Shown here in pieces: positions 46,598 through 63,612 of a stretch of DNA of 64,000 nt. The notes under the pieces are model-generated. The model had not been told where the DNA came from and searched no databases. It saw nothing but the letters and a program-made list of their open reading frames with translations. The DNA is from a virus. Each line of letters starts with the position of its first letter. The first letter of the stretch is position 1. The translations under genes and the position numbers were made by a program. The DNA lies in IMG/VR virus record IMGVR_UViG_3300032334_001019, positions 1-64,000 of that record; one strand, written 5' to 3'.

Positions 46598-46704
46598 TAT
46601 TCCGTCATGATACATGCAGTTGCTTTATAAGCGACCTTATTGCTGAGTACGGAGAAACCCTGGATCGCTACCTGGGAAGACCTGAGTAAGTCTGTAAACT
46701 GCTC
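46598..46704 (+). ncRNA. Candidate structured ncRNA ending in a pseudoknot
   Basis: TATAAT at 46588-46593; stems TCCGT/ACGGA and GTTGCT/AGCGAC, CCC-GG/CC-GGG hairpin, terminal H-type pseudoknot; no ORF. Confidence 0.5.
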
Positions 46705-46727
46705 TTTATCATGCTATAATGGTAGTT

Positions 46728-47177
46728 ATGGAAGAATTAATTAATCTACTAAAGGTGCTGCTTGCAGATAATATTACTCTCAAGTTAAAGGCTCATGGCT
46801 ATCACTGGAATGTAGAAGGTGATGATTTTCTTCAGTACCACGAACTTTTTGAAAATATTTATACAGATTATGATGAAGCAACAGATACCTATGCTGAATG
46901 GCTTCGTAAATTAGATACATATGCACCATTTAAACTATCAAGATTTATTCAACTTAATGAAGTTGGAGAACCTGATGTTACTTCAGATCCAATGATGATG
47001 TCTGCAGATCTGCTTATGGCTAATGACATGGTTCTTGCTAAGTTAGTAGATGCTTGCGATATGGCAACATCAAACAAACAACACGCACTTGCAAACTTTT
47101 TTGCAGAGCGTATGGATCAACATCAAAGATGGCACTGGATGTTATCTGTTTCAATTAAAACAGTAGGAGAAGAATAA
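46728..47177 (+). CDS. dps: Dps/ferritin-like protein
   Basis: 'KAHGYHWNVEG..F...HELFE', 'D.YAE..R'. Confidence 0.9.
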   Translation: MEELINLLKVLLADNITLKLKAHGYHWNVEGDDFLQYHELFENIYTDYDEATDTYAEWLRKLDTYAPFKLSRFIQLNEVGEPDVTSDPMMMSADLLMANDMVLAKLVDACDMATSNKQHALANFFAERMDQHQRWHWMLSVSIKTVGEE

Positions 47178-48055
47178 TGCCATATCATGTAGGAGCAAAA
47201 GGTTCAAACGGTTGTTCTGGATATCCAGTAGTAAGTGATGCTGGAAAAGTAGCGGGATGTCATACAACAGAAGCAGAGGCAGTAAATCAAATGCAAGCAT
47301 TATATGCAAATGTGCCAGATGCAAAAAAGGGTGAAGCATCTATTGAAACATCAGGTAATCCTGAGAACCCATCAGAATCAATTAATCCAACTGTTGGAAT
47401 GAGAAAGCCCGCAGTAATGCCAGGTGGAAAGAAAAAGAAAAAGTATCGTGCTGCTAAAGCAATTGATGCTACAACAATCTTAAAAGATATGGTTGCAGAA
47501 GGTGACTTTGTTATTGTTTCGTGTGAAGATGAAACACATGTTGGTATTGTTCAGTATGTAATGACTGAAGGAATGTTTGGAATTGCCACATCTGACTATG
47601 CTATTGAAGCATCAGCAGAAAACCCAGCAGTTCTTGTTCGTACCCTTGAACTTGAAGAAGATGAGGGTATTTGGGAAGAATCAGAATATTTAGTAGGAGC
47701 AGAAGCAAAGATGGTTACTAAGATTGAGCCACTGGCATTAGAAATAGAAGTAGTATCTAATGGTTATCAGGATTGCGGATGTCCTACATGCGAAGCACTT
47801 AATGTAGACTGTGAAAACTGTCCAGTATGTTCTCCAATACCTGCAACTGATTCTGAAGTTGAGATGGCAATGTATGACTCATCTATTGGTAAGGCTGATC
47901 CTTGCTGGGATGGTTATGTACAGCGTGGAATGAAGGAACAGGGTGGAAAAATGGTTCCAAACTGTGTTCCAGTTGAAAAAACAGAGTCAATTTTTGCGGG
48001 ACTTGGTAAAGATTATACAAAATCAACCACAAATACATATAGAGTTGAAGAGTAA
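47177..48055 (+). CDS. Cys-rich acidic hypothetical protein
   Basis: 'CWDGYVQRGMK...VPNCVP' phage motif, Cys clusters. Confidence 0.55.
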   Translation: MPYHVGAKGSNGCSGYPVVSDAGKVAGCHTTEAEAVNQMQALYANVPDAKKGEASIETSGNPENPSESINPTVGMRKPAVMPGGKKKKKYRAAKAIDATTILKDMVAEGDFVIVSCEDETHVGIVQYVMTEGMFGIATSDYAIEASAENPAVLVRTLELEEDEGIWEESEYLVGAEAKMVTKIEPLALEIEVVSNGYQDCGCPTCEALNVDCENCPVCSPIPATDSEVEMAMYDSSIGKADPCWDGYVQRGMKEQGGKMVPNCVPVEKTESIFAGLGKDYTKSTTNTYRVEE

Positions 48056-48070
48056 TTTAGTAATAGTTTT

Positions 48071-48745
48071 ATGAAAAGAGTAGCGCTACTCTATTCTGGA
48101 GAAATAAGAAATATCCTTGATTGCTTTAATAATCATTATGATAATATAATCTTACCAAACAAAGATGAGTATGAGTTTGATATATATTTTCATCTTTGGA
48201 TTACACCATGGGAAACCAATGATCTTCGTACTAGAGTGTTACAAACATTAAGACCATTAGCATATGAGTTTGAACCATACATAGAATTTAAAAATGATAT
48301 TGTACCAGATCCAAGGTTTCCACATCCAGTTCAAAATTTTTACTCAATGTTTTATGGTATGAATAAAGTAAATAAACTAAAAGAAAAAATAGAGCATGAT
48401 CAAAACAAAAAATATGATTTAGTCTTTAGAATGAGAACTGATTTATTTTTTCTTAGATCAATAGGAAAACTAAGCGACTATGATAATACTAGAATTCATA
48501 TACAGGAAGATTGGGCACACCTAGAGTACGGAGTCAATGATCAGTTTGCCTTCGGTCCATCGGAGGATATGTCAAAGTTTATATCTGTCTACGAAAACTT
48601 AGACGAACTATATAAGATGGGCTGTGCCATAAATCCAGAATGCCTGATGGGTTTTAACGCTCAGAATGTACATAACCTTAAAATTGAACGGCATAAGTGG
48701 AAGTTTTGGCTATTTAGACATATCCTATGGAACATAAGTAAGTAG
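48071..48745 (+). CDS. Putative glycosyltransferase-like protein
   Basis: 'VALLYSGEIR', 'YDLVFRMRTD', 'NDQFAFG'. Confidence 0.55.
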   Translation: MKRVALLYSGEIRNILDCFNNHYDNIILPNKDEYEFDIYFHLWITPWETNDLRTRVLQTLRPLAYEFEPYIEFKNDIVPDPRFPHPVQNFYSMFYGMNKVNKLKEKIEHDQNKKYDLVFRMRTDLFFLRSIGKLSDYDNTRIHIQEDWAHLEYGVNDQFAFGPSEDMSKFISVYENLDELYKMGCAINPECLMGFNAQNVHNLKIERHKWKFWLFRHILWNISK

Positions 48746-48894
48746 TGTATAATAGATAAATGCCTAAAAAGAAATCATATGCATTTAATCCAATGCAGAT
48801 AAAAGATGGATGGATTGTAAGACTGTACAAAGACGGACGCATAAAGTCTAAGATAGAAAAATATACGCCAAAGGCTCCTAAAAAGAGTTAGCCC

Positions 48895-49149
48895 ATGAAA
48901 GAAATTCTGCACTTTACGGCAGATTGGTGCATGCCATGCAAAAGGTTAAAGCCTATATTAGATGAAATACTTTTAGATTATCCTGATATAAAGTACAACA
49001 GTATAGATGTAGATTCAAACATTGGTATTACAAATGACTATAATGTTCAAAGTGTTCCAACACTGATAATTTTAGTTGATGGTGGTATACATAAAAGACA
49101 CCGTGGAGTTGCAACTAAAGAAGAGTTAATTAAGTTTATTAGTGAATAA
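48895..49149 (+). CDS. Thioredoxin
   Basis: 'FTADWCMPCK', 'VQSVPT'. Confidence 0.9.
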   Translation: MKEILHFTADWCMPCKRLKPILDEILLDYPDIKYNSIDVDSNIGITNDYNVQSVPTLIILVDGGIHKRHRGVATKEELIKFISE

Positions 49150-49870
49150 CTATACAACAGTTACCATCTATTCTGTCATTAGATAGTAGGTAATCTTTTA
49201 AGTCGCCAAGATTTTTTCTAATAATAAGTTCATCTTGTCTTGTCAGATTATAACAAAGGGTACTCTGTTTATGTTTTCCAAAAGCATTTATTACTTCATC
49301 TAAAAATAAAAATATATGATCACTAAAGTCTGCCTTTTGGTTAGGCAATAGATTTCTTTGCTTATTCATAATATAAAAAACCATTGGTATATCATTATTT
49401 TTAATTTTATTTAAATGATTTATTCTATCCTGTTTGTCATGTGAAAGAAACCCCTCAAATGAAAACCTATTCATGCAGCCAGCAACAGATACTGCAGCCA
49501 TAATAGCAGAAGGTCCAGGAGTTGATGTTATCTCTACTCTTCCATCCTCTATAATTCTTTTTACTATTTGTTCCCCTGGGTCTGCAATACCAGGCATCCC
49601 CTCATCTGAAATAATAAAAATATCATTGCCACTTACAAGTAAATCAATTATGCGATCATACTCTTTTGCTTCTTTGTCATTTCCTTCTTCATATGCAATA
49701 TCTATAAGTTCTGCACTACACTCAACACTTATTCTACTGCAAAAATCTTTAAACAATAAGGGATTTTCAACTGCTATATATTTAGCAGTTTTAATTGCTT
49801 GAATAGTTGTAAAAGAAATATCATCAATGTTTCCAATTGGAGATCCAATAAGGTAAAGTTTGCCAAACAT
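49139..49870 (-). CDS. RsmI-like methyltransferase
   Basis: 'LYLIGSPIGNIDDIS', 'ISDEGMPGIADPG', 'PGPSA', 'F.FEGFL'. Confidence 0.8.
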   Translation of the reverse strand: MFGKLYLIGSPIGNIDDISFTTIQAIKTAKYIAVENPLLFKDFCSRISVECSAELIDIAYEEGNDKEAKEYDRIIDLLVSGNDIFIISDEGMPGIADPGEQIVKRIIEDGRVEITSTPGPSAIMAAVSVAGCMNRFSFEGFLSHDKQDRINHLNKIKNNDIPMVFYIMNKQRNLLPNQKADFSDHIFLFLDEVINAFGKHKQSTLCYNLTRQDELIIRKNLGDLKDYLLSNDRIDGNCCIVIH

Positions 49871-49930
49871 TAGTAAATAAAACCTCTTACCTTATTAATC
49901 TTTTTAAGAGCCTTTTTTACTCTACGTTTT

Positions 49931-50971
49931 TTAAGTAGATTTTTTATGAATTTCATTTATAATCCCCCTCTCTTTAATTGCTTTTAAAAAATCTTCTGCC
50001 CAACATAGGTTAGTTAAATATCCTGGATGACCATCTCTTGCATAAAGATCTGCTTCTTTAAATTTTCCATCTGGCCTATGCCTTGCAATAAACTCTTCAG
50101 TTGCTTCGTTAATTCTAAAGAATGTATCTTCAAATAATTTACTATTCTCTACATTAATAGCGTTTGCATCATCCCACATTGTCCAAATAATTTTTATATC
50201 ACTTGCTTTGCAAAATTCAATAAATGAAAACCATGCAGTTGCCCAAACTGGAAAGATTTGTCGTTCTTCATACAAGGTTGGATATGGACTTAGATCTAGT
50301 GATGTAAAAGGATCTCCACTACCCCTTGTTTCTCTATTTTCTTTAATTATTTTATCTTGATTTGTTCTATCTGATGCATATGGAAACTGCTGAGTGTATC
50401 TCCATTGATTTTCTGATTCTATCCAGTAATAATTTCTTAATATATTTGGATGATTTATTAAAAGCACATCTGGTTTTGCATATTCTTTACAATATTTAAA
50501 AACAGCAGACATAATCTTTTGCCAACCATAACCACCCTTACCTAAACTAAAAAATCCAGAAAGATTATAGTCTTTTGAAAGTTCATCGTAAACAATCTTT
50601 GTCCAAACATTGTCTATTTTTGAGCCAACACCTTCTGTGTTTGAACATCCAGCAAATAAAATATGTAATCCGTCATGATCTTTTTTAAAGTGTTCTGATC
50701 TAAACCAATCTGAGTTGTATTTGTAACCAACAGCCCAATCTTTTCTTTGAGGATTAACATTTTCAGGCGGGATAGGATCTAATATATGATAATTACTTTC
50801 ATCAAGTTTATAGTTAAATGCTTTGTATAAAAAGGCAGTCTCTGACTCTGTTTTATCAACTACTGGGTCAGCCCAAGTTTTATCAAATTCAGCAATCTTC
50901 ATTGTTCTTAGAGCGTCTATGCTTAATTTTAATTCTTCAGCGAGTTCTCTTGTTTGATCGTAATCGCTCAT
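49931..50971 (-). CDS. SGNH-like protein
   Basis: 'LFAGCSNTEG', 'DGHPG'; paralogous to 31447-32250. Confidence 0.65.
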   Translation of the reverse strand: MSDYDQTRELAEELKLSIDALRTMKIAEFDKTWADPVVDKTESETAFLYKAFNYKLDESNYHILDPIPPENVNPQRKDWAVGYKYNSDWFRSEHFKKDHDGLHILFAGCSNTEGVGSKIDNVWTKIVYDELSKDYNLSGFFSLGKGGYGWQKIMSAVFKYCKEYAKPDVLLINHPNILRNYYWIESENQWRYTQQFPYASDRTNQDKIIKENRETRGSGDPFTSLDLSPYPTLYEERQIFPVWATAWFSFIEFCKASDIKIIWTMWDDANAINVENSKLFEDTFFRINEATEEFIARHRPDGKFKEADLYARDGHPGYLTNLCWAEDFLKAIKERGIINEIHKKST

Positions 50972-50972
50972 T

Positions 50973-51671
50973 TCAGTAAGCCTTTCTAAGATAAATATCA
51001 TAAAAACCTAGATTATGTAATGCAAGTGCATCAACTACCCAGTTTGTATTAATAGATAAGAATTCATTTACTGTTTGAAATGTACCATATCCAATATCTT
51101 CAATTATACCATCGTAGATAAGGTAATCATTTAGCCCAATGCGACCACCAACATTAACTAAATTAGAAGAGTCTTGTAAAACCTTTCTTGTAAGAAATCT
51201 ATCATTTGAAACATCGATGTAAATAAAGTCATATTTATTATTTAATGTCGACAATATGTTTGCTGCATCACCCTTCATAGTAGCAACCTTTGGATGATAA
51301 CTAAACTTGTCAATGATATAAGTTTGGTGAGTTTCTGGTGTATACAAAAGTTCATGCTTAAATCCATCACATTGGCATGAGCCAAACTTTCTCCATGACC
51401 AGCACTTAAGGTCTTGGTTATAAAGGTCTACCAATACGGCTTCTGAGGCTTCTGAGGCGTCTATAAACATCTGTGCTGAGTATCCCCAAGCAACTCCTAC
51501 CTCCAAGTACCTTATGCCTTTAGGAAGGCTTTTAGCATACTCTTCTCTTGATGAAAAGATTCTTGCTTCATTTAATTGCTCTTGAGATATTTTTGGTGAG
51601 TCTTCAATTTCATCATCATTTACATATCTTATTTCATCATAATTAGACGAACGCACTGGTTTTTTAGGCAT
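50973..51671 (-). CDS. Class I SAM-dependent methyltransferase
   Basis: 'LEVGVAWGYS', 'YDFIYID', 'GG.I..NDY'. Confidence 0.8.
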   Translation of the reverse strand: MPKKPVRSSNYDEIRYVNDDEIEDSPKISQEQLNEARIFSSREEYAKSLPKGIRYLEVGVAWGYSAQMFIDASEASEAVLVDLYNQDLKCWSWRKFGSCQCDGFKHELLYTPETHQTYIIDKFSYHPKVATMKGDAANILSTLNNKYDFIYIDVSNDRFLTRKVLQDSSNLVNVGGRIGLNDYLIYDGIIEDIGYGTFQTVNEFLSINTNWVVDALALHNLGFYDIYLRKAY

Positions 51672-52368
51672 TTAGTCTGCGTTCCTGGCTATCAATAATA
51701 GTTTTATTTGCAGAATAAAATAGTTCAATTGCCTCATCTAGTCTGGTATGAGACTCAACCAATTGCTTTATTTCATAATAAATCTCTGGTTTTTCATCTA
51801 CTGGTAATGGGTTGTTGAATGCAGGATGGCCCTTGTCATGTTGATTAATTACCCTCCGTGCCTCATCCATTAAATCTTGCAACATGTCATTACTTAATTT
51901 TCTATATGGCAAATTAAAATTAGACATAACATAGTCAACAACAAAGTTAGGGTTAGAAGTCATCTGATCAAATGTAAAAGCAAAAAGATTATCTATATTT
52001 TTAATGGTTGATCCAGACCATCTCCTGTACACATCAAACTGATCGTCGACAAGTCTTTCTAGTGATGGAAGATTGTTATATTCGTGTGGCATTGGTATTC
52101 CAGATGCAACAGTATTTCCAATACCTCCCATTGTTTTGGTAACAATAGATGGAATTATGTCAACTGGATTTCTTAAAACGGTTGTTTGCACAATATCTTT
52201 AAACTCACCCAATAAAATTACTGGGGCATTGGTTCTAATAATAAACCTATCTTCTATCTCGCCCATAGAGATTGATCTATCAAAGTCAACTGATTTAAGA
52301 AGAAGATATTGTAACCAGGTGTGGCCAGACCTTGGTGATGCATTAATTAAAACTCTTATGTCTTTCAT
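51664..52368 (-). CDS. Sulfotransferase-like protein
   Basis: 5'-PSB 'SPRSGHTWL', 3'-PB 'LRNPVD..PS'. Confidence 0.7.
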   Translation of the reverse strand: MKDIRVLINASPRSGHTWLQYLLLKSVDFDRSISMGEIEDRFIIRTNAPVILLGEFKDIVQTTVLRNPVDIIPSIVTKTMGGIGNTVASGIPMPHEYNNLPSLERLVDDQFDVYRRWSGSTIKNIDNLFAFTFDQMTSNPNFVVDYVMSNFNLPYRKLSNDMLQDLMDEARRVINQHDKGHPAFNNPLPVDEKPEIYYEIKQLVESHTRLDEAIELFYSANKTIIDSQERRLNA

Positions 52369-52589
52369 TAACCAATCCTTGAGTGTGATCCATCACAAAA
52401 TGGTGCTCTTGCACTTTGCCCACAAACACAGGACTTTTTCTTCTTTAAATTATCTAACTTTACTGTAATCTGTTCATTTGTTTGCAACACATTGACTAAA
52501 TAGTTTTCTTCATTAATGCTTAAAACTTCTACTGCTTTACCGCTGTATCCTTCAAGGTCTACAACTATTGCATAATCATTTATATTCAT
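52368..52589 (-). CDS. CDGSH iron-sulfur domain protein
   Basis: 'CVCGQSARAPFCDGSH'. Confidence 0.85.
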   Translation of the reverse strand: MNINDYAIVVDLEGYSGKAVEVLSINEENYLVNVLQTNEQITVKLDNLKKKKSCVCGQSARAPFCDGSHSRIG

Positions 52590-52612
52590 AATACTCCTTT
52601 TAACTATTATAG

Positions 52613-52685
52613 CACCCCTGGCAGGAATCGAACCTGCGACGCATGGCTTAGAAGTCCATCGTTCTGTCCACTGAACTACAGAGGT
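52613..52685 (-). tRNA. tRNA-Arg(TCT)
   Basis: ACCTCTG/CAGGGGT stem, loop CTTCTAA, TTCGATT T-loop. Confidence 0.9.
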
Positions 52686-52689
52686 ATTG

Positions 52690-52762
52690 CATCTCCAACG
52701 GAATTCGAATCCGTGTTGCTGCCGTGAAAGGGCAGAGTCCTAGGCCACTAGACGATGAAGAC
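52690..52762 (-). tRNA. tRNA-Glu(TTC)
   Basis: Anticodon arm CTGCC-CTTTCAC-GGCAG, TTCGAAT T-loop. Confidence 0.9.
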
Positions 52763-52766
52763 ATAG

Positions 52767-52840
52767 TACATCTGGAAGGACTTGAACCTTCGGCTCTCCG
52801 CATATAAGGCGGGTACTCTAACCAACTGAGTTACAGATGT
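52767..52840 (-). tRNA. tRNA-Ile(TAT)
   Basis: ACATCTG/CAGATGT, anticodon loop CTTATAT, TTCAAGT T-loop. Confidence 0.85.
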
Positions 52841-52844
52841 GTAG

Positions 52845-52919
52845 TACACCAGGTAGGACTTGAACCTACGAATAGCCGAATTATGAGTTCGGTGCCTTAA
52901 CCAACTTGGCTACTGGTGC
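52845..52919 (-). tRNA. tRNA with CAT anticodon (elongator Met or Ile2)
   Basis: CCGAA-CTCATAA-TTCGG; lacks the initiator 3 G-C pairs. Confidence 0.88.
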
Positions 52920-53266
52920 TAGTCCTTAAGATACTAGTATACCAAGTAGCATACCAATTGTAAAGCAAAGAATACCAACAGTCCAGTGATAGTAGGTTTT
53001 CATGTGTTCTTTAATAATCTGATCTTTAATTTCTGTTTTAATTTTTTTTACTTCTTCTGTCATTTTTACACCATATCTTATAGTCGCTCATAGTCTGGTG
53101 ATTATCCCAGTACTCAATGTTTTCTTTGTCCATCTTACAGGTAGGGCAGATCATTGTCTATGCCGTTTCTTATTGCCAAACTTAGACTTAACTTCAGCCT
53201 TAGCCTGATCAACAATAGCCTTCGTAATGTCTTCAACACTAAACTCTTGATCAAACTCTGCTTCAT

Positions 53267-53566
53267 TCATTCTGATTCCTTAATATGATTTAGTTTAGTA
53301 TTGTAATAATTAGTAGAGGAACCGTGTTTCATTTTTCTTAACTTCTTCCACACTGCAAACCTAAGACCAAGTTTTGTATAGGCAAGTCCACCCCTACCCA
53401 TTCTAGTATAATAAACTTCATTGTAGCGATTAGATAGTTCTTGATTGAATTGTTGAACTTCCCAAAACATAGCATGTTTGCCATATCGCCAGTCTTTCTC
53501 AATCTTTACCCTGATTAACTCTTCAGGTGGTTCAATTTGTGAATATGTTTCTTTACGTTTTTTCAT
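53267..53566 (-). CDS. Hypothetical protein
   Basis: ORF track; minus-strand small-gene array. Confidence 0.5.
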   Translation of the reverse strand: MKKRKETYSQIEPPEELIRVKIEKDWRYGKHAMFWEVQQFNQELSNRYNEVYYTRMGRGGLAYTKLGLRFAVWKKLRKMKHGSSTNYYNTKLNHIKESE

Positions 53567-53757
53567 GGGCGTGCAGTCCTTTCAAGGTAGTCAATCACAT
53601 CACAATCTATATCACAAAGATCAAGGGAGATGATATCTGCCACAATATCTGATCTAATTGAATTCATTATTGCTCTGCTCATTTGCTCCTCAATATCTAA
53701 TTCAAGGTTAACATACTTAACCCAGGGTTTGCGTAATGTATATGGTCCTATTTTCAT
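53563..53757 (-). CDS. Hypothetical protein
   Basis: ORF track; coupled to the next gene. Confidence 0.5.
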   Translation of the reverse strand: MKIGPYTLRKPWVKYVNLELDIEEQMSRAIMNSIRSDIVADIISLDLCDIDCDVIDYLERTARP

Positions 53758-53772
53758 ATATATATCATATCA

Positions 53773-54201
53773 CTAAGAACCTTGTTCACGCAAGTCTAAA
53801 GTCTTAATACTTTCAATACATGTTGTAACAGCCTTAGCCCAATTCTTAGCCCCTGGATATTTCATGTTGGAAGTTACGCTACGATTGGCATGCTTGTACC
53901 AAGTAATAATTAAACCATTTTTCTTGTACACAAAGTTTGGTGCACAACCATCTGGATGAGGACCTTCATACTCTCCCCATCCTGAATCACACCAGCAATA
54001 AGGACGCATCTCAAACACATCATTAATAAATTCTGGATCACCAGAGTTTGATGTTAGAAGGTTTGCATATCCGTATTTACCGTGAGAATACCCACGGTAT
54101 TCAGCAATAACTTCTGCAATTAAGTTAAGACCTTCAGTAGCCCAAAAACCATCATAAGTTTGTGACGGAGTATTACTAAGTAGCATTTGTCCTAATTCCA
54201 T
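53773..54201 (-). CDS. Hypothetical protein
   Basis: 'FEMRPYCWCD...PNF.YK...I.WYK' phage motif. Confidence 0.55.
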   Translation of the reverse strand: MELGQMLLSNTPSQTYDGFWATEGLNLIAEVIAEYRGYSHGKYGYANLLTSNSGDPEFINDVFEMRPYCWCDSGWGEYEGPHPDGCAPNFVYKKNGLIITWYKHANRSVTSNMKYPGAKNWAKAVTTCIESIKTLDLREQGS

Positions 54202-54404
54202 TACCATCCTCCAAGGCATTCGTTGCGTGTGTGAAATAATCTAATCTTTGTCATAATTTTGCGGGATGGAGCATAAAGCATCTCATTACAAGCACACTTA
54301 TAAGACCATTCACCAGTAAAGAAATCATGCACATAACCTTTGGCATTAGCGTATTTCTTAGATACAAAGGTTTGAAATGGGTCAGGTATTTCCATATTGA
54401 TCAT
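54201..54404 (-). CDS. Hypothetical protein
   Basis: Leaderless after TATACT. Confidence 0.55.
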   Translation of the reverse strand: MINMEIPDPFQTFVSKKYANAKGYVHDFFTGEWSYKCACNEMLYAPSRKIMTKIRLFHTRNECLGGW

Positions 54405-54422
54405 ATACTAAGTATACTTTAG

Positions 54423-55643: not shown

Positions 55644-56195
55644 TTATATTATAATTTTCTTTTCTAAAAGTTTATTGTATTCATAATAACATAAATCAGT
55701 ATTAAAGTCAACCAAACTTATTGTTTTATATTCCTTAAGATTCTGGCTTGATCCTAAATACTTTTCACCATTAAACTTTTTATAATCTTCAATGGTAAAT
55801 TCAAGATTGTCTTCTATTTTTATGTTTAGGTAATCCATAAAATTATTAATTACTAAACTAGAATCATTGACTAAATCATTAAAATCAATAACATAATCTG
55901 CATGTTCATACAAAAATTTATAAAAAAGTATATAGTTTGATAGAACATGATTTATAAAATCTTTGTTAACATCTTGACCATAACTTGATTGCACTGCTAA
56001 AATTGACATAGCAGTTTCTTTTGGGTCTCTGACTATTGTAATAATTTGTTTTGTTTTGTTCATATCTTTATAAAACAAATCTAATATTGTATGAGAGCCT
56101 TCGATTCTGATACCAGTTTTTTGATAAAACAATTGATGAAAATAGTGTGATCCACTTCTTGGATATGTTAATAGATATGGAGGATTGCTATGCAT
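55644..56195 (-). CDS. Sulfotransferase-like protein
   Basis: 'TYPRSGSHYF', 'IVRDPKE...S'. Confidence 0.7.
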   Translation of the reverse strand: MHSNPPYLLTYPRSGSHYFHQLFYQKTGIRIEGSHTILDLFYKDMNKTKQIITIVRDPKETAMSILAVQSSYGQDVNKDFINHVLSNYILFYKFLYEHADYVIDFNDLVNDSSLVINNFMDYLNIKIEDNLEFTIEDYKKFNGEKYLGSSQNLKEYKTISLVDFNTDLCYYEYNKLLEKKIII

Positions 56196-56197
56196 TT

Positions 56198-56743
56198 TTA
56201 AACTATAACTTTCTTTTCTAAAAGTTTATTGTATTCATAATAACATAATCCAATATTAAAATTATCTAGTTTTATTTCATTATATGAATCAAATTTTTTG
56301 CTTGATTGTATCCATCTCTCACCATTAAATTTTTTATAATCTTCAATAATAAAATTTGAATCTTTGTTATATTCTATATTTAAAAAATTTAATATTTTAT
56401 TAACTATGGTATCTGGATATTTAATTAAATCGTTATAATCTATCACATAGTCTGCATGATTATACAAACATTGATAAAGTAAGGCATAGTTTGATATGGT
56501 ATGACGAATAGAGTCGTCATGAACCTCTGTACCCTGTTCTTTTTGCATTGTCAAAAGAGATCGTATGCTTTCTTCTGGATTTCTTGCTATTGTAATAATA
56601 GTTTTTGTTTTTATTTTATTTTTATCAAAAACATCTCCAATTGTGTGAGATCTTTTAAAGCGATACCCTATTTTTGCATAAACTAAATGTTCAAAATAGT
56701 GAGAACCACTTCTTGGGTATGTCAATAAGTGTGGAACCATCAA
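56198..56743 (-). CDS. Sulfotransferase-like protein (tandem paralog)
   Basis: 'TYPRSGSHYF', 'IARNPEE...S'. Confidence 0.7.
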   Translation of the reverse strand: MMVPHLLTYPRSGSHYFEHLVYAKIGYRFKRSHTIGDVFDKNKIKTKTIITIARNPEESIRSLLTMQKEQGTEVHDDSIRHTISNYALLYQCLYNHADYVIDYNDLIKYPDTIVNKILNFLNIEYNKDSNFIIEDYKKFNGERWIQSSKKFDSYNEIKLDNFNIGLCYYEYNKLLEKKVIV

Positions 56744-56885
56744 GCACCTATTGAAGGCATGGTTTGTTCGCAGGGACAGATGATAGACTCAGGTAACTCA
56801 TGAACCTCAGTCTCAATAGATATAATTGTTGCACAATCTGGACATTTATAAATAGTTTTCATGTTTTAAGTATATCAGATTAAAA

Positions 56886-57686
56886 CTATGCAGTCAACTC
56901 TTTAATTACAGAAAATATACCAGATAGATCCTTTTGATCTGTAACTATAATGAAATCATCTATATTGAAATCTTTAGATATCTGTTTAATTTGATTAATA
57001 ACTTCTTCGTGAGTGCCTTTGATAGTATGATTGGGTTTAATTGTATACTGGTATTGATTATATTCGACGGTATCTAGGCTTTGACCTTCTTTAAGTACTA
57101 GTGGATCAATTATTAGTATTAGTTTAGTATTCGTAATCTTGTCAAGTATATGCTCATTAAGCATATATTCTCCTACAATCAGGTAGTCTGCATAGTTATT
57201 TGCTATTCTTATGGTGGTATCAGATGAGCCAACTACACATAACTTTGCATCAAAGTCAAACTCTTTCATTAAATAAACAAACTTTTCCATCCAAGGCTCA
57301 GTTAATGCAACTCTTTTTTCATGATCATCTAGTATGGATGGATCTCCTGGATATGCTTGAATTACCATATTTTCTCTATTTTCATCATATCTGCCAGCAA
57401 CTAGGTTAAGATCTAGTCTTTTATGAGCAAAATTGTTAACTGACTTAAATATTTTTGCAGCATATTCTGGTGTAATACCATAGGCAGGCAGTGCAAGCAT
57501 CATCTTAATCTTTTTGGTTGCATTAAGCATTGGAAACAAATGAATTGAAAAATCTATACCTCTTGGGCCATAAGGAAGTAATATGGATGTTATGTTTGAA
57601 TTTTCCATATCTTTAGCCATGCGGATAAGTCCATCACCCTCTACTGGCCAACCCACACGATGCATCCAGTGAAATTTTATGCTCAT
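56886..57686 (-). CDS. Luciferase-like flavin monooxygenase (SsuD-like)
   Basis: 'MSIKFHW', 'SILLP', 'RLDLNLVAG', 'GSSD'. Confidence 0.7.
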   Translation of the reverse strand: MSIKFHWMHRVGWPVEGDGLIRMAKDMENSNITSILLPYGPRGIDFSIHLFPMLNATKKIKMMLALPAYGITPEYAAKIFKSVNNFAHKRLDLNLVAGRYDENRENMVIQAYPGDPSILDDHEKRVALTEPWMEKFVYLMKEFDFDAKLCVVGSSDTTIRIANNYADYLIVGEYMLNEHILDKITNTKLILIIDPLVLKEGQSLDTVEYNQYQYTIKPNHTIKGTHEEVINQIKQISKDFNIDDFIIVTDQKDLSGIFSVIKELTA

Positions 57687-57774
57687 TATTAAATTATACC
57701 TGATTTAAAGTTCGGCGGAAAATAGAAGTAACAAACCATCTTATGCCCTACACGGGCGGTATTGGTTAATATAT

Positions 57775-58272
57775 CTACACAAGCCTACGAGATAGTAATA
57801 GATTATATGCCTCATATGCCTTAGATAAGTCATAGCCATCTAAATGGTTTTGACCATACAACTCTGAAGTAGTACTTGATACTAAATAAACCTCATCAGG
57901 CCTATCAATCATAGAGTCTTCATATGTATGGTCAATGACTGGTTTGTTTAATATATAGGATATTGAGTCTATAACTGCATCTGGGTTTTTTATCAGGGTA
58001 TCGTAATCAATAACAGCATTAGCCCTAGTATATAACAAACCATATAGTGCCGTATATTTATCTATCTCTGCCTGTATGCCTATATCCTGATGATAATGTG
58101 ATGACATAGTTATGAAAGACTGAAGTGTATCTTTAGGGTTTCTTGCTATAGTAAAGACAAAGCCATCTGCATCATCTATCAGGTGTGAGCCATCTATCCT
58201 AGTATCTAACTTTTGTACAATCAATGCTCTTAAGTAATGTGAGCCAGATCTAGGATAGGTAATTATGATCAT
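57775..58272 (-). CDS. Sulfotransferase-like protein
   Basis: 'TYPRSGSHYL', 'IARNPKD...S'. Confidence 0.7.
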   Translation of the reverse strand: MIIITYPRSGSHYLRALIVQKLDTRIDGSHLIDDADGFVFTIARNPKDTLQSFITMSSHYHQDIGIQAEIDKYTALYGLLYTRANAVIDYDTLIKNPDAVIDSISYILNKPVIDHTYEDSMIDRPDEVYLVSSTTSELYGQNHLDGYDLSKAYEAYNLLLSRRLV

Positions 58273-58315
58273 ATATTTAGTATAACATATGGCTCAAAGT
58301 TTATATCCCCTGGCT

Positions 58316-58510
58316 TTAGTCACAGGATACACAGTAATATGGAGCACGAAGGTGATCTGGAGCAATAAATGATGGTTTGCCACATCTTACACATACTGCT
58401 CTGACTAAACCATTGTCTTCCATCTCAAATCTAAATGATCTTGTGTAGTATACCCTTGTGGCATACCAGGTGAAGGCTATAGCGATTATTGTTATCATTT
58501 TACTCCTCAA
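58316..58510 (-). CDS. Small membrane/Zn-ribbon protein
   Basis: Hydrophobic N-terminus, CxxC...CxxC. Confidence 0.45.
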   Translation of the reverse strand: MRSKMITIIAIAFTWYATRVYYTRSFRFEMEDNGLVRAVCVRCGKPSFIAPDHLRAPYYCVSCD

Positions 58511-58880
58511 AACTCATTTGTGATGACCAAAAGTCATTATTGTCTGTTTCAATTTCATCTACAACGACATGACAATTAGAACAAGTTACCTTGCCATCTA
58601 AGTCAATTTCATAGTAATGTCTACAGTCCATAACTCTATAGTACCACATCAAGGTTAACAGATATCCACAGGTTAGCAGTTATGAGTATAGCCACAATCA
58701 GGACATTTCTCTCCTGGATTTGCTACACAATCATCACACCAATCTGGAGCATCCTTCCAAGATTTACCTAAAGAATCATATTCTGGTTTGTCCATGTGTC
58801 TAGTATATCAAAAGATATTGTAATTTGATAGTGGATTTGTCGATAAATCATCTTACTGATGATATTTCTAGATAGGGTAG

Positions 58881-58910
58881 AAGTGGAGTAAAGTGGAGGA
58901 TAGTGGAGTA
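58881..58910 (+). repeat. Three 10-bp-phased direct repeats (W)AGTGGAG, MraZ-box-like
   Basis: AAGTGGAGTA AAGTGGAGGA TAGTGGAGTA. Confidence 0.75.
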
Positions 58911-59034
58911 CTGAGCATTTATTTGAAGGCGCCGTAATTTCCACAACGGCCAAACCACCTATCTTTCAAACCACCATATCCCTCATATACCACATATGGG
59001 GAATATTGTCAAACCTTCGTAATATTGTTTGGGC

Positions 59035-59063
59035 ATTATATACCCTGAAACAGGGTTTGTCAA
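59035..59063 (-). promoter_or_regulatory. Perfect consensus promoter with palindromic spacer
   Basis: TTGACA-17 nt-TATAAT; spacer holds ACCCTG-TTT-CAGGGT. Confidence 0.7.
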
Positions 59064-59199
59064 GCCCCAAACCACATATATTTGTATAATGTATTGTCGA
59101 CAAATCTCCAAATATCAGAGAAAAATTAAATAAAAATATATAAAGGTTTGATAAATATTTAAATATCAGGATAAAAGGTTTGATATCGTAATATAGGGG

Positions 59200-59436
59200 T
59201 TATTCTGTATCAGAGTTGGCTTGTTTGTATACCTTGCCTAGTTCCCGCCCAATTTTGCGGGGGTTGAGAACCTCTGGATCTACGCCTGATAAATCGGCGG
59301 GGGTAAAAGAGAAGAAACGATTAACAATAGGAACATACTTAGTAACAGATACAAAACCATTCCATAGGTTATCACTGAATGCTTGATATTGTTTTGGATC
59401 TTGCTTAGCATAGTCTGCAAAATGTGATCTTCCCAT
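59200..59436 (-). CDS. Hypothetical protein
   Basis: Leaderless after TGATATAAT. Confidence 0.4.
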   Translation of the reverse strand: MGRSHFADYAKQDPKQYQAFSDNLWNGFVSVTKYVPIVNRFFSFTPADLSGVDPEVLNPRKIGRELGKVYKQANSDTE

Positions 59437-59653
59437 ATAAGAATTATATCATGGTTTGACAAACAAGGTTTTATATGATAAAAGGTTTGGTACGGGGAAA
59501 AGAATTTGTCTTTCGTAATCTGGTTTGGGGAAAATAATTGTTTGATCGTAATATGGTTTGATATGAATGTTTGGTATGTCCGATATGTCCGAATTCACGT
59601 GGCGATTTTCTGGCAGCACAAAGCAGGGGCGCAAGGCCCCCACCTGTGACTGA

Positions 59654-59950
59654 TTATTCTATTGTGTTTTTCTTGATGTGTGACTCTGCCAAGAGAGCAG
59701 GAAGTGTGATTTCATCAAATGATTCAATCTCTTCCTCTGTAAGTTCGATAGCCTGAATAAACATCTCAAACGATTCAACAATGTATTGCTCACCTAGTGG
59801 TGAGATTTCTTTTACTAAACCTTCAGCAACATAGTATGCCAATGGCAATCCAATGTCGTTATACTCAATGAAGTTACTAAAATCCTCATCGTCCCTGAAG
59901 TTAATCCACAGTTCTCCTAAGATCCCTGCCTTGTCTGCCAAATCTACCAT
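59654..59950 (-). CDS. Hypothetical acidic protein
   Basis: 'YNDIGLPLAY' phage protein. Confidence 0.55.
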   Translation of the reverse strand: MVDLADKAGILGELWINFRDDEDFSNFIEYNDIGLPLAYYVAEGLVKEISPLGEQYIVESFEMFIQAIELTEEEIESFDEITLPALLAESHIKKNTIE

Positions 59951-60177
59951 ACTGGTCTCCCTGTCTTTATCTCTTGCATAAGTTTATCATACTCCTCCCC
60001 CGCTGTCAAGGCAACAACCTCAAAGCGGTCATAGACAATCTTAGGCAGGTTTCTAACTAAATAATAACCAACTCGTTCTAGGTCAATAGAAAAGTCCTCT
60101 GTCATCAACTTGCCAATACGCTCTGCTTGTCGTGTTTCTTTGTTTGCACCATTAAGACTAGTAAGCCTTCTAGACAT
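59944..60177 (-). CDS. Hypothetical protein
   Basis: GAGGAG SD. Confidence 0.55.
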   Translation of the reverse strand: MSRRLTSLNGANKETRQAERIGKLMTEDFSIDLERVGYYLVRNLPKIVYDRFEVVALTAGEEYDKLMQEIKTGRPVW

Positions 60178-60260
60178 AGTTCTCCTCTCTATTCATTGTA
60201 CCAAAAAAGTATTGGGGGCGCAAGGTGGCAGGCCCCACGCCCCCTATAGGTAAGGGAGAC

Positions 60261-60623
60261 CTAGGCCCCTACCTCCGCAGCAACAGGTGCATAGGCTAAG
60301 ACAAATACATCCCAGCCAACGGCATTGCCCTGTTCATCAATAACAGTATGATTAATCAAGTCAACAATCACAGTGGTCTCGCCCAAATCATAGTTGGTTC
60401 CAGTGATGGAGTAAATTCCAAAGCCGTGCTCATCCAGAACAGAATCTTGAATAAGATAACTAATCATCATACGGGTGGCATATGATGGATCAGTCCACCT
60501 AGGCTTAGCATGCTCCAGGGCCATGGCAATATCACGACGCCAGCCAGTCTCACCCCAATGGCTGTACAAAACAACTGCAGATGACAGTTCGTCCTTAAAA
60601 ACAAAGTTAATCCGTGCTCCCAT
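60261..60623 (-). CDS. Hypothetical early protein
   Basis: 'MGAR...LYSHWG' motif; AAGGA SD. Confidence 0.6.
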   Translation of the reverse strand: MGARINFVFKDELSSAVVLYSHWGETGWRRDIAMALEHAKPRWTDPSYATRMMISYLIQDSVLDEHGFGIYSITGTNYDLGETTVIVDLINHTVIDEQGNAVGWDVFVLAYAPVAAEVGA

Positions 60624-60768
60624 TAGTTTTCTTCCTTCCAAGATACAATTGATAGTTGACTTAAAATTTCATTGCAAAGGTCAGCCTCATTATCTGATTC
60701 AGCCTCATAACTAAATGTCATGTAATCACCTGTTGGTTCAAAGATGATTTCTACTTTATATTCGTTCA

Positions 60769-61224
60769 TTAGATTGCTCCTAGGTCTCTTAGTTCTTCAA
60801 TACTAGCACAGCCTGCACATTTTTGCAACTCCTCAAACTTTTCAAAATGTAGAGTTGCTTGCTCGTCATCCCATATCATCTCACAATTTGGGCATTCGTA
60901 AGATGGTTCGATAACCGATACCTGATAATCCTTGCTTTCATCCCAAGGTACCTCAGTAACAAAATAGCCAATCCTATTAACAATGCAGCGACCATTAATA
61001 ACATAGGTACCCCCATCATCTCCGTCAATGTATGTCCAAGTATATAATGGGTCAGCGTCAGAAACATACTGTACTTCATCACCGTAGGTCTCAAACATAA
61101 TGCCACCTTCGCCATTGTCAAATGAAGCATTTTCATCTAGATGATTGGTGATAGGCTTGTAGGTCTCTAGCCATTCATCAAAGTCTATCTCTATAAGTTC
61201 GTTAGGCAAAGTACTTCTCCTCAA
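60769..61224 (-). CDS. Hypothetical protein
   Basis: 'FETYG.E...WT...VNRIGY.VTE.PW'; start uncertain. Confidence 0.55.
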   Translation of the reverse strand: MRRSTLPNELIEIDFDEWLETYKPITNHLDENASFDNGEGGIMFETYGDEVQYVSDADPLYTWTYIDGDDGGTYVINGRCIVNRIGYFVTEVPWDESKDYQVSVIEPSYECPNCEMIWDDEQATLHFEKFEELQKCAGCASIEELRDLGAI

Positions 61225-61441
61225 TGTTTTTGCGGTCTATAGATAAATTATAGGTCATGCAGTATGCACTTGTCAAGGCTTCCATATACCCTTCCAAAAA
61301 TCTATCAGCATTGCCTTCCATGGCGTACTCGCACTCCAGCATTTCTTGCTTTAGCCACCCATGCATGAGGTCAATCAGAGGTATAGAGATGTCCTCTAAT
61401 GGTTTAGTTAAATATTCGGGGATGAATGGATACTTACTCAT
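61202..61441 (-). CDS. Hypothetical protein
   Basis: ORF track. Confidence 0.5.
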   Translation of the reverse strand: MSKYPFIPEYLTKPLEDISIPLIDLMHGWLKQEMLECEYAMEGNADRFLEGYMEALTSAYCMTYNLSIDRKNIEEKYFA

Positions 61442-61586
61442 TGATTACTTCAATCAGATGTTTAACAGCATAGATTTGTCCCTCGATATCTACCACATGG
61501 ATAGAGGCTGGGTTTTCTTCAAGGTCTTGTTCAAGACTTATAAGGTGCAGGTTTAGATACTCTTTAAATGTTTTTAGGTCCATATA

Positions 61587-61826
61587 TTAATTATAAGGGT
61601 TGGTGTTGATTTTTACAAGTTTTGCTGGTGTGACCTTCATCACAGGCTCATCGTCAGGTGTTGGATCTTCATCCACATGTGTAACAGTAGTATTCCATTT
61701 GCTTAATAGGATTACATGTGATGTAGCATGGCAAATACAGGCGGGATCAATCTGAGGATTAACAGATGCGCTAATCTCTATAAGAGCATCACAATCAGTA
61801 CAAAGATAACTATACTTAGTCCACAT
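61587..61826 (-). CDS. Small Cys-containing hypothetical protein
   Basis: 'CTDCD...C.C'; AAGGAG SD. Confidence 0.5.
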   Translation of the reverse strand: MWTKYSYLCTDCDALIEISASVNPQIDPACICHATSHVILLSKWNTTVTHVDEDPTPDDEPVMKVTPAKLVKINTNPYN

Positions 61827-62230
61827 ATTAGTCTCCTTGATTAACTAGATAAGCACGAACTTCTTCCAGGGCATCAATAGCCTGTTCACATACTACAATC
61901 ATATCTTCTCTAGTCATTAGTCAAAATACCCTTCTGCCCATAGACCCTGGAGGAATGCATAGGTCTTAGCCAAACCATCAGAAACAGTTTCATCTGTTGT
62001 GTAATCATGAGCGGTACCAACTGAGTTAATCATTTCATCTAACTCTATTTTAGTATATCCTAGCATTATTCAACATACCCCACAATCATTTGCATAGCCT
62101 GGTGTAGGAAGCAATCGCAATCCCCACCATTCATATTTTCCATTAGTTCAAAGTGTGAGAAGTTATCCTCGTAGATAGCGGTAAGTAGTTCATCTATTGT
62201 GTATGGTTTATAGGTCGTTGTCATAGATTA

Positions 62231-62259
62231 ATTCTACCCTAGACTGGGGAAAAATGCAA
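62231..62259 (-). promoter_or_regulatory. Early-type leaderless promoter
   Basis: TTGCAT-17 nt-TAGAAT, ATG 6 nt downstream (62224). Confidence 0.6.
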
Positions 62260-62351
62260 GTCATCTTAAAGTTTTTATATAAGAAATTTCATTGTCCGAA
62301 ATGTCCGTTTTTCACGTCCCGCATTTTTATGCATATCAGTGAATAAAAATT

Positions 62352-62378
62352 GAGCAGTTTATTCTCATGCTCAGGAGA
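62352..62378 (-). other. H-type pseudoknot motif copy 2
   Basis: TCTC-CTGAGCAT-GAGA-ATAAA-CTGCTC just after the DUF932 stop. Confidence 0.6.
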
Positions 62379-62386
62379 TTTTTTAT

Positions 62387-63403
62387 TTATGCAATCTGCA
62401 AAGTGCTTTGCACAATTTTGAGCAAACGATTTTTCTCTGCGTTAATTGCAGGGTCAAATCCGCTTGCACTTGCAAGGATAGATTCGTTAGAACCACCACG
62501 AGCAGAACGATACCAATCTAAACGCTCTGTGAGCGCATTGAAAGCGCCCCATGCGTTACCAGCAATCATTCCGTTAAACTCGCCTGTGTAGATGTCGTTA
62601 ATAACATCGACCTTGTTTTCCCACTTCTTGAACGCACCCTTAGAGTCTTTTTCAGGCTTAGGGTATGCAGCAAGAATGATGTCGTTGAATTGCTTAGCAT
62701 TGACTTCTGTTTCAATCATAGCCTTAGCCATGAGGTCAAAAGAATCCATGTACTTATGAGCCATGCCTAATGTCTCACGAGCAACTTGTACCTTGCCAGC
62801 AGCAGTTTGCGTGTGGCGAATCTTGAAAGATTGCTTGATGCCATTCTTACGCTTAGTAGTGTTAAGTGCAAGATTGAGGGTGTTAGCGCACACAACACGA
62901 ACAGGTGTTATGCTTGCTTGAATAGCGATTGAGCCATCGTGTGATGTGTTGATTAGAAGATAAGTCTTTACCTTATCTGCTACACCGTTAGGGTCAAGAA
63001 CTGTTTCACGCTCTAGTGCTAAAGCGCCAAATACTACACGACCACCCTTGATTGAGCCAGCGGTCTCCCAACGACCTCCGCCGTCAAGAATGTTATCACC
63101 AAATGAAAATAAATCTTCATTCTGCATAACATGATAACGCTCACCTACGACACCTAAAATGTCTGTCTGTGAATTATCTGTAGGGTTAGTACGCAAAACA
63201 TACTGGTATGTCTTGTCGCTTGTTAAATGTGATGGGGTTTCCAAATCTTCCAGACGAACATTCCAACCATTGAGGTTTGCAGCCTCTAGCATTTCTGCTG
63301 TTGTTTTTTCTTCTGTAAATACGGTACCCAATCCATGCCAAGCGGGTTCACGAAATGATGCGAATGAAGCCTTACCATTTTGTGTTTCGATTTCATGTGC
63401 CAT
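62387..63403 (-). CDS. DUF932 (phage/plasmid-like protein, TIGR03299-type)
   Basis: 'PAWHGLG', 'Y..MQN', 'ETAGS..GGR', 'SHDGS', 'RVVCANT', 'RHT'; AAGGAG SD before 63403. Confidence 0.88.
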   Translation of the reverse strand: MAHEIETQNGKASFASFREPAWHGLGTVFTEEKTTAEMLEAANLNGWNVRLEDLETPSHLTSDKTYQYVLRTNPTDNSQTDILGVVGERYHVMQNEDLFSFGDNILDGGGRWETAGSIKGGRVVFGALALERETVLDPNGVADKVKTYLLINTSHDGSIAIQASITPVRVVCANTLNLALNTTKRKNGIKQSFKIRHTQTAAGKVQVARETLGMAHKYMDSFDLMAKAMIETEVNAKQFNDIILAAYPKPEKDSKGAFKKWENKVDVINDIYTGEFNGMIAGNAWGAFNALTERLDWYRSARGGSNESILASASGFDPAINAEKNRLLKIVQSTLQIA

Positions 63404-63434
63404 GAGTTTACTCCTTTGTTGTTGTTGAGATTTA

Positions 63435-63463
63435 AGTATAACAGGATGGGCTGACAAATGCAA
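63435..63463 (-). promoter_or_regulatory. Promoter of DUF932 gene
   Basis: TTGCAT-17 nt-TATACT with TG. Confidence 0.65.
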
Positions 63464-63569
63464 ATCGGGATAGTTAAACATGGGCAATTTGGACATGGGA
63501 AAAGTTTGACTGATCATAACGGCGTGTCGACTTGACAGGGGACGTGGCAAAATTTTGCAGGGATTGAAG

Positions 63570-63597
63570 GAGCAGTTTTAAAACATGCTTAGGTTTT
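63570..63597 (-). other. H-type pseudoknot motif copy 3
   Basis: AAAAC-CTAAGCAT-GTTTT-AAAA-CTGCTC after the stop at 63613. Confidence 0.55.
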
Positions 63598-63612
63598 ATT
63601 AGTAGCCCCCTA

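Follow-up and report, generated by a model that had tools for sequence, protein, structure and literature searches.

The window analysed here is the first 64 kb (64,000 nucleotides) of a single phage contig of 118,464 bp and ~35% G+C, IMG/VR record IMGVR_UViG_3300032334_001019, and the element in question is a small RNA pseudoknot that recurs in it. One copy (c1) lies in the 131-nt intergenic gap between an Hsp20 gene and a ferritin/Dps-like gene, the latter beginning about 15-24 nt past the copy. Two more follow a DUF932-family gene (c5) and an open reading frame (ORF) of 137 amino acids (aa) for which no significant Pfam or PHROG family was found (c4) (Table 1). These copies had been noticed in a first inspection made from the letters without database searches (the sequence-only reading), and their positions and strands can be read directly in the window. 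The description as a three-copy element did not hold: the whole-genome scan gives six copies, three of them inside the window. The six are preceded by the Hsp20 gene, the DUF932 gene and four small ORFs of unknown function, and the gaps from stop codon to the first helix (P1) measure 7, 8, 9, 15, 21 and 90 nt. Two window copies indeed lie 8-15 nt past stop codons: the TAA of the DUF932 gene (62389-62387) stands 8 nt ahead of P1 of c5 (stop offset -14) and a TAG (63615-63613) stands 15 nt ahead of P1 of c4 (stop offset -22). The reported lack of classical terminators agrees with our terminator scan, which lists no site at any phage copy. For the suggestion that the third copy ends a candidate non-coding RNA nothing was found; c1 lies between the Hsp20 and Dps-like genes.

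Table 1. Coordinates of pseudoknot copies and associated features (window positions unless a genome or contig is named).
Feature	Position	Strand	Description
Pseudoknot copy c1	46678-46704	+	AGAC-CTGAGTAA-GTCT-GT-AAAC-TGCTC; covariance model R1 41.6 bits, E 4.2e-10; also in descriptor scan
Pseudoknot copy c5	62352-62378	-	TCTC-CTGAGCAT-GAGA-AT-AAAC-TGCTC; second helix (P2) UGAGCA/UGCUCA; R1 43.3 bits, E 1.4e-10
Pseudoknot copy c4	63570-63597	-	AAAAC-CTAAGCAT-GTTTT-A-AAAC-TGCTC; P1 5 bp; P2 end pair A.C mismatch; R1 41.6 bits, E 4.1e-10
Three further copies, beyond window end	genome 64102-64128, 64596-64623, 66586-66613	-	whole-genome scan
Hsp20 gene ahead of c1	46183..46587	+	Pfam HSP20 E 2.6e-16; stop 90 nt before P1
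Ferritin/Dps-like gene after c1	46719..47177	+	Pfam Ferritin E 2.5e-17; PHROG 3636
DUF932-family gene (387 aa), cistron preceding c5	62387..63550	-	Pfam PF06067 E 2.5e-47; PHROG 1221 E 2.3e-103
137-aa ORF, cistron preceding c4	63613..63999	-	3' part in window, extends to genome position 64026; ORF list
Type III hammerheads in contig L164	7271-7325, 7541-7595	-	Rfam 50.5 bits (above gathering) and 41.2 bits (E 1.4e-7)
DUF2800 RNA (RF02960), 3-4 nt past knot in 3/3 loci where found	L028:285-445, L117:1616-1771, L206:5432-5592		Rfam
20-26-aa ORF, examples	L139:162-221(-), L203:2690-2749(+), L197:7520-7579(-), L158:1169-1228(-), 8 more		metagenome-assembled genomes (MAGs) of several phyla

The window copies share the loop CTRAGYAW and the tail AAACTGCTC. 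This tail occurs four times in the window where 0.70 occurrences are expected, a count that none of 100 shuffles attains, and CCTRAGYAWG occurs four times against 0.86 expected (1/100 shuffles gets to 4). A covariance-model search of the genome, proposed as a check in the sequence-only reading, was run with model R1 and scores the six copies at 33.5-43.3 bits (E <=1e-7), the runner-up in 78 kb reaching 14.1 bits. Because of the excess of both sub-motifs over shuffles and these scores, the window copies are not explained by chance. The observation that the P1 sequence varies while its pairing is kept extends to the whole genome, as the P1 stems of all six copies differ and each is perfectly paired. 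Within the phage genome alone the end pair of P2 (G-C, G-U, A-U, A.C, G-C and A-U in the six copies) is weak evidence, and the case for P2 rests on a wider set.

This wider set was collected with the fixed-length pattern CCTRAGYAWG-N5-AAACTGCT, which is present in at least 120 IMG/VR contigs and, among GTDB species genomes from many phyla, in at least 118 contigs. Viral figures (146-151 matches or sites) and genome figures given here are among the matches listed. The latter include Saccharibacteria and other Patescibacteria, Lactobacillales, Lachnospiraceae, Bacteroidota, Cyanobacteria (including a Nostoc plasmid), Alpha-, Beta- and Gammaproteobacteria, Aminicenantes, Thermodesulfobacteriota and others. 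P1 pairing is absent from roughly a tenth of the genome matches, which are probably chance occurrences. Cultured carriers include the Lactobacillus phages phiAQ113, KC5a and phi jlb1, the prophage Lj771 and Anoxybacillus phage A403.

Since the pattern does not constrain the flanks of P1 or the bases that follow CTGCT, these positions test the structure. Among the viral matches, each of the inner two variable P1 pairs is Watson-Crick in 146/146, the third is paired in 115/146 and the fourth about as often as at random. The P2 end pair R4:N24 is G-C in 113 of the 146, A-U in 21, G-U in 5, A.C in 1 and something else in 6, and U3:N25 is U-A in 92. An alignment of 150 sequences was made from the six genome copies and 144 random picks out of 257 distinct pattern matches, unpaired ones retained. 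It has 91.9% of its cells paired, compared with 78.2 +/- 0.7% in shuffled alignments, and a covariation score of 0.396 against 0.154 in shuffles (0/500 equal it); with slid partners pairing is at most 41.4%. As the pattern freezes most of P2, 238 loci were scanned with a descriptor that requires P2 pairing and leaves the P2 sequence free. This gave 263 sites, 25 of them outside the pattern and every one of these with compensatory double changes in P2, and none in shuffled loci. The variants comprise GGGUA/UACCC, GGACA/UGUCC, AGGCA/UGCCU, AGACA/UGUCU, GGCCA/UGGCC, GAUCA/UGAUC, GGGCG/CGCCC and GAGUA/UACUC. U.G pairs occur at U7.G21 (39/150) and G4.U24 (15/150); they fix the RNA strand as given, because on the other strand they would read A.C. 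The pseudoknot proposed in the sequence-only reading, with the loop paired to the 3' TGCTC, is thus borne out by covariation of both helices, P1 in the 146 matches and P2 in the 25 variants.

The element is an H-type pseudoknot of ~28 nt and fixed length with the consensus N-G-W-C, C, U-R-A-G-Y-A, W, G-W-C-N, N-N-A-A-A-C, U-G-C-U-Y-A. P1 has 4 bp (N-G-W-C/G-W-C-N), loop L1 is a single invariant C, P2 has 6 bp, one base (W9) forms the junction, and loop L3 reads NNAAAC with AAAC invariant. The sixth P2 pair is probably U3-A25, by which U3-A8 would pair with U20-A25. Invariant unpaired nucleotides are C2, A16-A18 and C19. Conservation ends at 28 nt, save for a depletion of G and an enrichment of U and C in the next ~8 nt. 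Nested folding of the three window copies finds each helix weak when taken alone (-3.8 to -6.5 kcal/mol), and since the sequence is conserved, this argues for a tertiary fold and not a plain hairpin. The AAAC of L3 probably lies in the minor groove of P1 as a triplex.

The pseudoknot appears to be an uncatalogued RNA family. The sequence-only reading had recognised no named family in it, and the comparison with Rfam 15 agrees. Over the window at gathering thresholds only six tRNAs are found, in 62300-63700 at E <=10 only chance-level matches to small nucleolar RNA, clustered regularly interspaced short palindromic repeats (CRISPR) and microRNA models, and at nine motif-bearing loci at E <=0.01 only tRNAs. 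Identity with the 'drum' motif was considered and dropped, as that family is in Rfam yet gave no match. A literature search by full text (motif strings) and keywords returned no description of the motif, its coverage lying outside the supplementary motif lists of PMC5737381 (224 motifs) and PMC10690425 (10,006 candidate RNAs), which may carry the element under another label. The pseudoknot sequence is also a CRISPR spacer in two MAG arrays (L178, minus-strand index 3391; L145, plus-strand index 1795), which indicates that hosts target elements carrying the motif. The arrays belong to Saprospirales (121 repeats, ~66-nt period) and Bradymonadales (42 repeats, ~72-nt period).

The pseudoknot lies on the sense strand of messages. 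Compared with the surrounding ORFs, 123 of 151 viral sites are on the same strand and one is on the opposite strand, 27 being unclear. Its distance to the preceding stop codon is sharply bounded. It was measured at 111 viral sites preceded by an open frame of 60 codons or more. Relative to nucleotide C1 of the knot, the stop codon has its first base at -11 in 23 sites, -12 in 10, -13 in 7, -14 in 12 and -15 in 15, with a thin tail farther out; no site has it at -10 to -1 and one has it at +2. The gap from stop to P1 thus has both its minimum and its mode at 5 nt and measures 5-9 nt in 67/111. When the stop codon is in the A site of a ribosome, P1 would come to lie at about +12, just outside the ribosomal helicase site. 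Downstream start codons are placed more loosely, 10-39 nt away in 55 of 129 viral cases, where they carry Shine-Dalgarno sequences, and at least 100 nt away in 53. Intrinsic terminators are rare near the viral copies (2/146 downstream, 1/146 upstream), and hence the knot is intercistronic in phages.

Other structured RNAs begin directly behind the knot. In 17 of 147 viral matches a tRNA gene begins 2-13 nt past it, and in none is a tRNA found directly upstream. Many of these 17 are homologous DUF932-knot-tRNA-Asp loci, the Leu, Arg, Gly and Ser cases being separate; in relatives of the phage a tRNA-Asp likewise follows the DUF932-knot junction. DUF2800 RNAs start equally close (Table 1). A third class is seen in contig L164, binned with Polynucleobacter, in the order ORF, stop, knot, hammerhead, Shine-Dalgarno sequence, 51-aa ORF, stop, knot, hammerhead, Shine-Dalgarno sequence and ORF. 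Each of the two hammerheads begins at T23 of a knot, with the predicted cut 7 nt past the knot, a layout that would yield one message per gene from a polycistronic RNA. Candidates for further hammerheads, picked by eye in L159, L003 and L007, were not confirmed, having no Rfam match at E <=0.001, and a strict hammerhead pattern occurs near 3 of 252 copies. As the tRNAs, hammerheads and DUF2800 RNAs begin 0-13 nt downstream and leave no room for a promoter, RNA polymerase reads through the knot, which is therefore neither an efficient terminator nor a promoter.

The flanking genes are diverse. Among upstream ORFs (148 scanned of 157) DUF932 is found 15 times, DUF7249 five times, HSP20 four times, ArdA and DUF2958 twice each and DUF3768 once, most having no family. 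Among downstream ORFs (148 of 155) there are eight Phage_scaffold (PF06810), four DUF4355 and four Zn_ribbon_8 proteins, the remainder being scattered. When the 175 sites with ORFs on both sides are compared in pairs, the ORFs are homologous upstream only in 245 pairs, downstream only in 42 and on both sides in 44, so the knot seems, by homology, to travel with the upstream gene.

A distinct arrangement is found at 12 bacterial loci. Here a stand-alone ORF of 20-26 aa (20 aa in 10/12), MKRFxxPRxAHCxEGCxxxS, with a strong Shine-Dalgarno sequence, has its stop codon inside the knot, at U3-G4-A5 of the loop. Neither Pfam nor NCBIfam has a family for the peptide, and the genes beside the ORF are unrelated housekeeping genes. 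Selenocysteine insertion at this UGA was dropped as an explanation, since on reading the frames past the UGA are not conserved. In four further contigs binned with Lachnospiraceae or Bacteroidaceae (L121, L173, L233 and L198), the order of elements is conserved: a promoter-like site is followed by a short leader, which contains a hairpin and a U tract, then by the pseudoknot, a U-rich stretch with AUGCC at its end, a Shine-Dalgarno sequence and a gene. In two cases this gene encodes a DnaJ-domain protein.

Regarding the phage itself, megablast of the region against cultured phages gave no match. Its DnaE-type polymerase (window 8281-11556, +) has its closest cultured relatives in Streptomyces phages of the BE/BK type (~54% amino-acid identity), yet the genome is of only ~35% G+C, as given above; the DUF932 protein is too widespread in protein searches to place the phage. 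Relatives of 104-116 kb carry 6-7 copies per genome, clustered likewise. Parts of the region occur, at small shares, in public runs whose labels are freshwater, pond, lake or estuary metagenome. RNA runs matching the region cover only 5-10% of sampled words, and the metatranscriptome contigs (four runs) are short pieces from relatives, mostly on the conserved DUF932 gene, which cannot show RNA ends or levels. The tRNA genes of the window form two clusters, two genes at 26802-26951 (+) and four at 52613-52919 (-), and none adjoins a pseudoknot copy. Strong sigma70-like promoters follow some of the phage copies, and some knots are separated from the next gene by promoter-like sites. One sigma70-type promoter close to consensus, TTGACA-18-TACAAT (11/12), is located just outside the window at genome 64059-64088 (-), 14 nt past copy c3. 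It is preceded by a small CCC-GCAA-GGG hairpin, and in relatives UUCG or GCAA tetraloop hairpins follow the homologous copy.

We tentatively favour the view that the knot is a portable barrier which guards or marks the 3' boundary of the upstream cistron. It would act in cis, as a ~28-nt RNA carried in sense-strand polycistronic messages. It stands as close to the stop codon as termination of translation permits, and a ribosome halted there would just fail to melt it. The transcript would be cut a few nt past the knot or trimmed from a distant 3' end. RNase P acting at a tRNA, a hammerhead, or perhaps a host endonuclease working in the U/C-rich tail could supply the downstream cut. The 3'-to-5' exonucleases PNPase and the RNase II/R family are near-universal; they would stall at the knot and the upstream message would survive. 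The sequence-only reading had proposed three roles, an exonuclease block, a non-canonical terminator and a knot that binds a ligand or protein. Of these, the exonuclease block or 3'-end element seems to fit the genomic context best, because the knot is tied to the upstream stop and gene, precedes by only a few nt the sites where RNase P or a hammerhead would cut, and is never found after a tRNA. For a binding knot the observations speak neither for nor against.

Precedents for a barrier at such a place are the repetitive extragenic palindromic (REP) hairpins of malE-malF and the hairpins of the puf operon, intercistronic 3' stabilisers proposed to stop 3'-to-5' exonucleases. Like the knot, they occupy the untranslated gap right behind a stop within a polycistronic message. 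They are long, plain, GC-rich palindromes confined to one species or genus, whereas the knot is a 28-nt pseudoknot with invariant loop bases that is shared by phages and many bacterial phyla.

Several observations weigh against a boundary barrier. The small Firmicutes siphophages, such as the Lactobacillus and Anoxybacillus phages, have a single copy between minor-head and scaffold genes, a boundary that would gain more from boosting the downstream genes. An intrinsic terminator follows several of the 12 short-ORF loci and would already protect the 3' end, so that a block seems redundant there, and some Firmicutes-type elements place the knot directly after a terminator-like hairpin. The hammerhead association is Rfam-supported at one locus only (L164). 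The tally of upstream and downstream homology is biased, downstream ORF calls being noisier and many sites being homologous loci. Since promoters follow some phage copies, upstream transcripts may simply run on. That the stop codon takes one of two discrete registers, either 5 nt or more ahead of P1 or within the loop, is a hint of a direct link with the terminating ribosome.

A more general proposition is possible, though we hold it as doubtful. The 28-nt triplex pseudoknot may be a near-universal roadblock or docking module where translation ends, spread horizontally by phages and conjugative elements across more than 10 phyla and targeted by CRISPR. In prokaryotes it would correspond to the exonuclease-resistant RNAs or recoding knots of viruses, its partner being 3' exonucleases, the terminating ribosome or RNA polymerase.

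Among the alternatives to a 3' barrier, a docking site comparable to nut or put is rather unlikely. Its partner would be RNA polymerase during elongation, the ribosome at termination or a conserved protein. Such a site would keep transcription going by anti-backtracking, anti-Rho or processive antitermination where coupling is lost, or would control the post-termination ribosome. The 5-nt minimum and mode of the stop-to-P1 gap equal the spacer of recoding pseudoknots, so that, given the known ribosome geometry, the knot would stand where mRNA enters a ribosome positioned at the stop codon. The -1 frameshift knots of luteoviruses (e.g. beet western yellows virus, ~28 nt) resemble it closely, being compact and H-type with a C-containing L1 of 1-2 nt, a junction of one base and a short P1 spanned by an A-rich L3. 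In both, a compact H-type pseudoknot lies 5-9 nt past the A-site codon, but here this codon is a stop, P2 is the longer helix and tRNAs follow many copies. Neither a slippery heptamer nor a continuing -1 frame was seen by eye at the six genome copies, and the intergenic gaps there are 60-130 nt.

The untranslated structured RNAs directly after the knot, the G-poor, U/C-rich 8 nt past P2 and the very high sequence conservation across phyla, which suggests a universal partner, also agree with docking. In the 20-aa-ORF class, moreover, the stop lies inside the knot and a terminator after it, and translation could turn the knot off. However, no partner protein gene co-occurs consistently, most flanking ORFs being without family, and the rarity of terminators near viral copies leaves little to antiterminate; in some loci the knot comes after, not before, the terminator. 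Lambda nutR (boxA-boxB) and HK022 put are, like the knot, cis-acting untranslated RNAs, nutR lying just behind the cro stop, and act on elongating polymerase. The boxB of nut is a simple hairpin with a GNRA-like pentaloop and its boxA is single-stranded, whereas the knot has a loop of 8 nt (CUGAGCAU) and resembles boxA only in UGCUC, a stretch engaged in P2 pairing. An N-like gene was not identified.

It is unlikely that the knot serves the RNA downstream of it, as a 5' stabiliser against 5'-end-dependent decay, a folding insulator or an enhancer of translation of the next gene. The single copy per genome directly before scaffold and major-head genes in the Lactobacillus and Anoxybacillus phages would suit this role, as would the lead of scaffold families in the downstream tally, the Shine-Dalgarno start codons 10-39 nt away in many viral cases, and an A-rich L3 over a short P1, the design by which frameshift knots resist unwinding from the 5' side. 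Cleavage at a following tRNA or hammerhead, however, would detach the knot from the downstream RNA, and the knot accompanies upstream genes more than downstream ones. Promoter-like sites between some phage knots and the next gene argue against it as well, and many of the proteobacterial hosts with the motif lack RNase J.

Two known types of phage RNA are comparable. The GP20-a and GP20-b motifs are structured RNAs reportedly described by Weinberg in 2017 and lie directly upstream of phage PF06810 (GP20/scaffold) genes. The knot does likewise at 8 of 148 downstream ORFs, but it is found in many other contexts too, and PF06810-adjacent loci of our motif match no Rfam model other than tRNA at E <=0.01. 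The leader pseudoknot of gene 32 of phages T4 and T2 is, like the knot, a small H-type fold within a phage mRNA, situated where it is not translated and having an unstructured A/U-rich stretch after it. It is a single 5'-leader site that acts as operator for its own protein and has no sequence likeness to our motif, which is dispersed behind unrelated genes. Both GP20 motifs and the gene 32 leader pseudoknot are mentioned in Fremin et al. 2023 (PMC10690425).

A small-molecule or ion aptamer with ligand-dependent folding is quite improbable. The pseudoknot, its invariant unpaired nucleotides (C2, A16-A18 and C19) and the multi-phylum spread would be expected of one, and the preQ1-I aptamer (RF00522) is similar in size and topology, both P1 and the P2 formed by loop and tail being short and the A-rich tail having C as its last base. 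Yet neither RF00522 nor any other Rfam riboswitch model matched at E <=10 (window 62300-63700), the flanking genes are functionally unrelated and there is no evident expression platform. Several copies occur per genome, behind stops and not in 5' leaders such as those of queuosine genes, and their neighbours are DUF932, Hsp20, scaffold and other genes.

That the knot cleaves itself as a ribozyme of minimal size, or assists adjacent ribozymes as a helper domain, is very improbable. Hammerheads and tRNAs adjoin the knot, and neighbourhoods of this kind have yielded new ribozyme classes (PMC5737381). But 28 nt is far below any known class, each knot of L164 already has a complete hammerhead after it, a redundancy if the knot were a ribozyme too, and most copies have no ribozyme nearby (3/252 by the strict pattern). 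No pistol, hatchet, twister or other model covers the knot, hammerhead models beginning only at its last bases.

We likewise give very little credence to a non-canonical terminator, which the sequence-only reading had considered and the read-through contradicts, or to a signal at the DNA level, whether a hairpin promoter or a recombination site at module boundaries. The position at gene ends without classical terminators in the phage and the U-rich run after some copies would suit a terminator. P1, however, has 4 bp (5 in one copy), where an intrinsic terminator has a stable GC-rich stem of ~5-12 bp, and the stems are too weak in energy for one; nor does transcription end at the element, judged indirectly from the neighbours reached by read-through. 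An identity of 23-28 nt shared at gene boundaries could promote recombination, and upstream-only homology fits breakpoints at or after the knot, but P2 covariation and strand-specific U.G pairs reflect selection on the RNA fold. The motif occurs in phyla whose promoters are unlike one another, which speaks against a promoter, and the spacing and the RNA-level covariation led to rejection of a sigma54-like or two-hexamer reading.

According to Weinberg et al. 2017 (PMC5737381), a pseudoknot, invariant nucleotides and multi-phylum spread are marks of sophisticated RNA function. The family combines a pseudoknot, invariant unpaired bases and distribution over many phyla, and is therefore worth experimental follow-up. 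The sharp stop-codon spacing makes the link to the terminating ribosome directly testable. If the knot is a 3' boundary barrier, a new fold would join the few widespread structured RNAs of bacteria, and its 28 nt would suit nuclear magnetic resonance or crystallography; it would also provide a compact insulator or stabiliser part for synthetic operons. The survival of upstream cistrons after RNase P or ribozyme cuts beside tRNA and ribozyme genes would be explained, and phages and mobile elements of very different hosts would share one tiny, portable message-boundary module.

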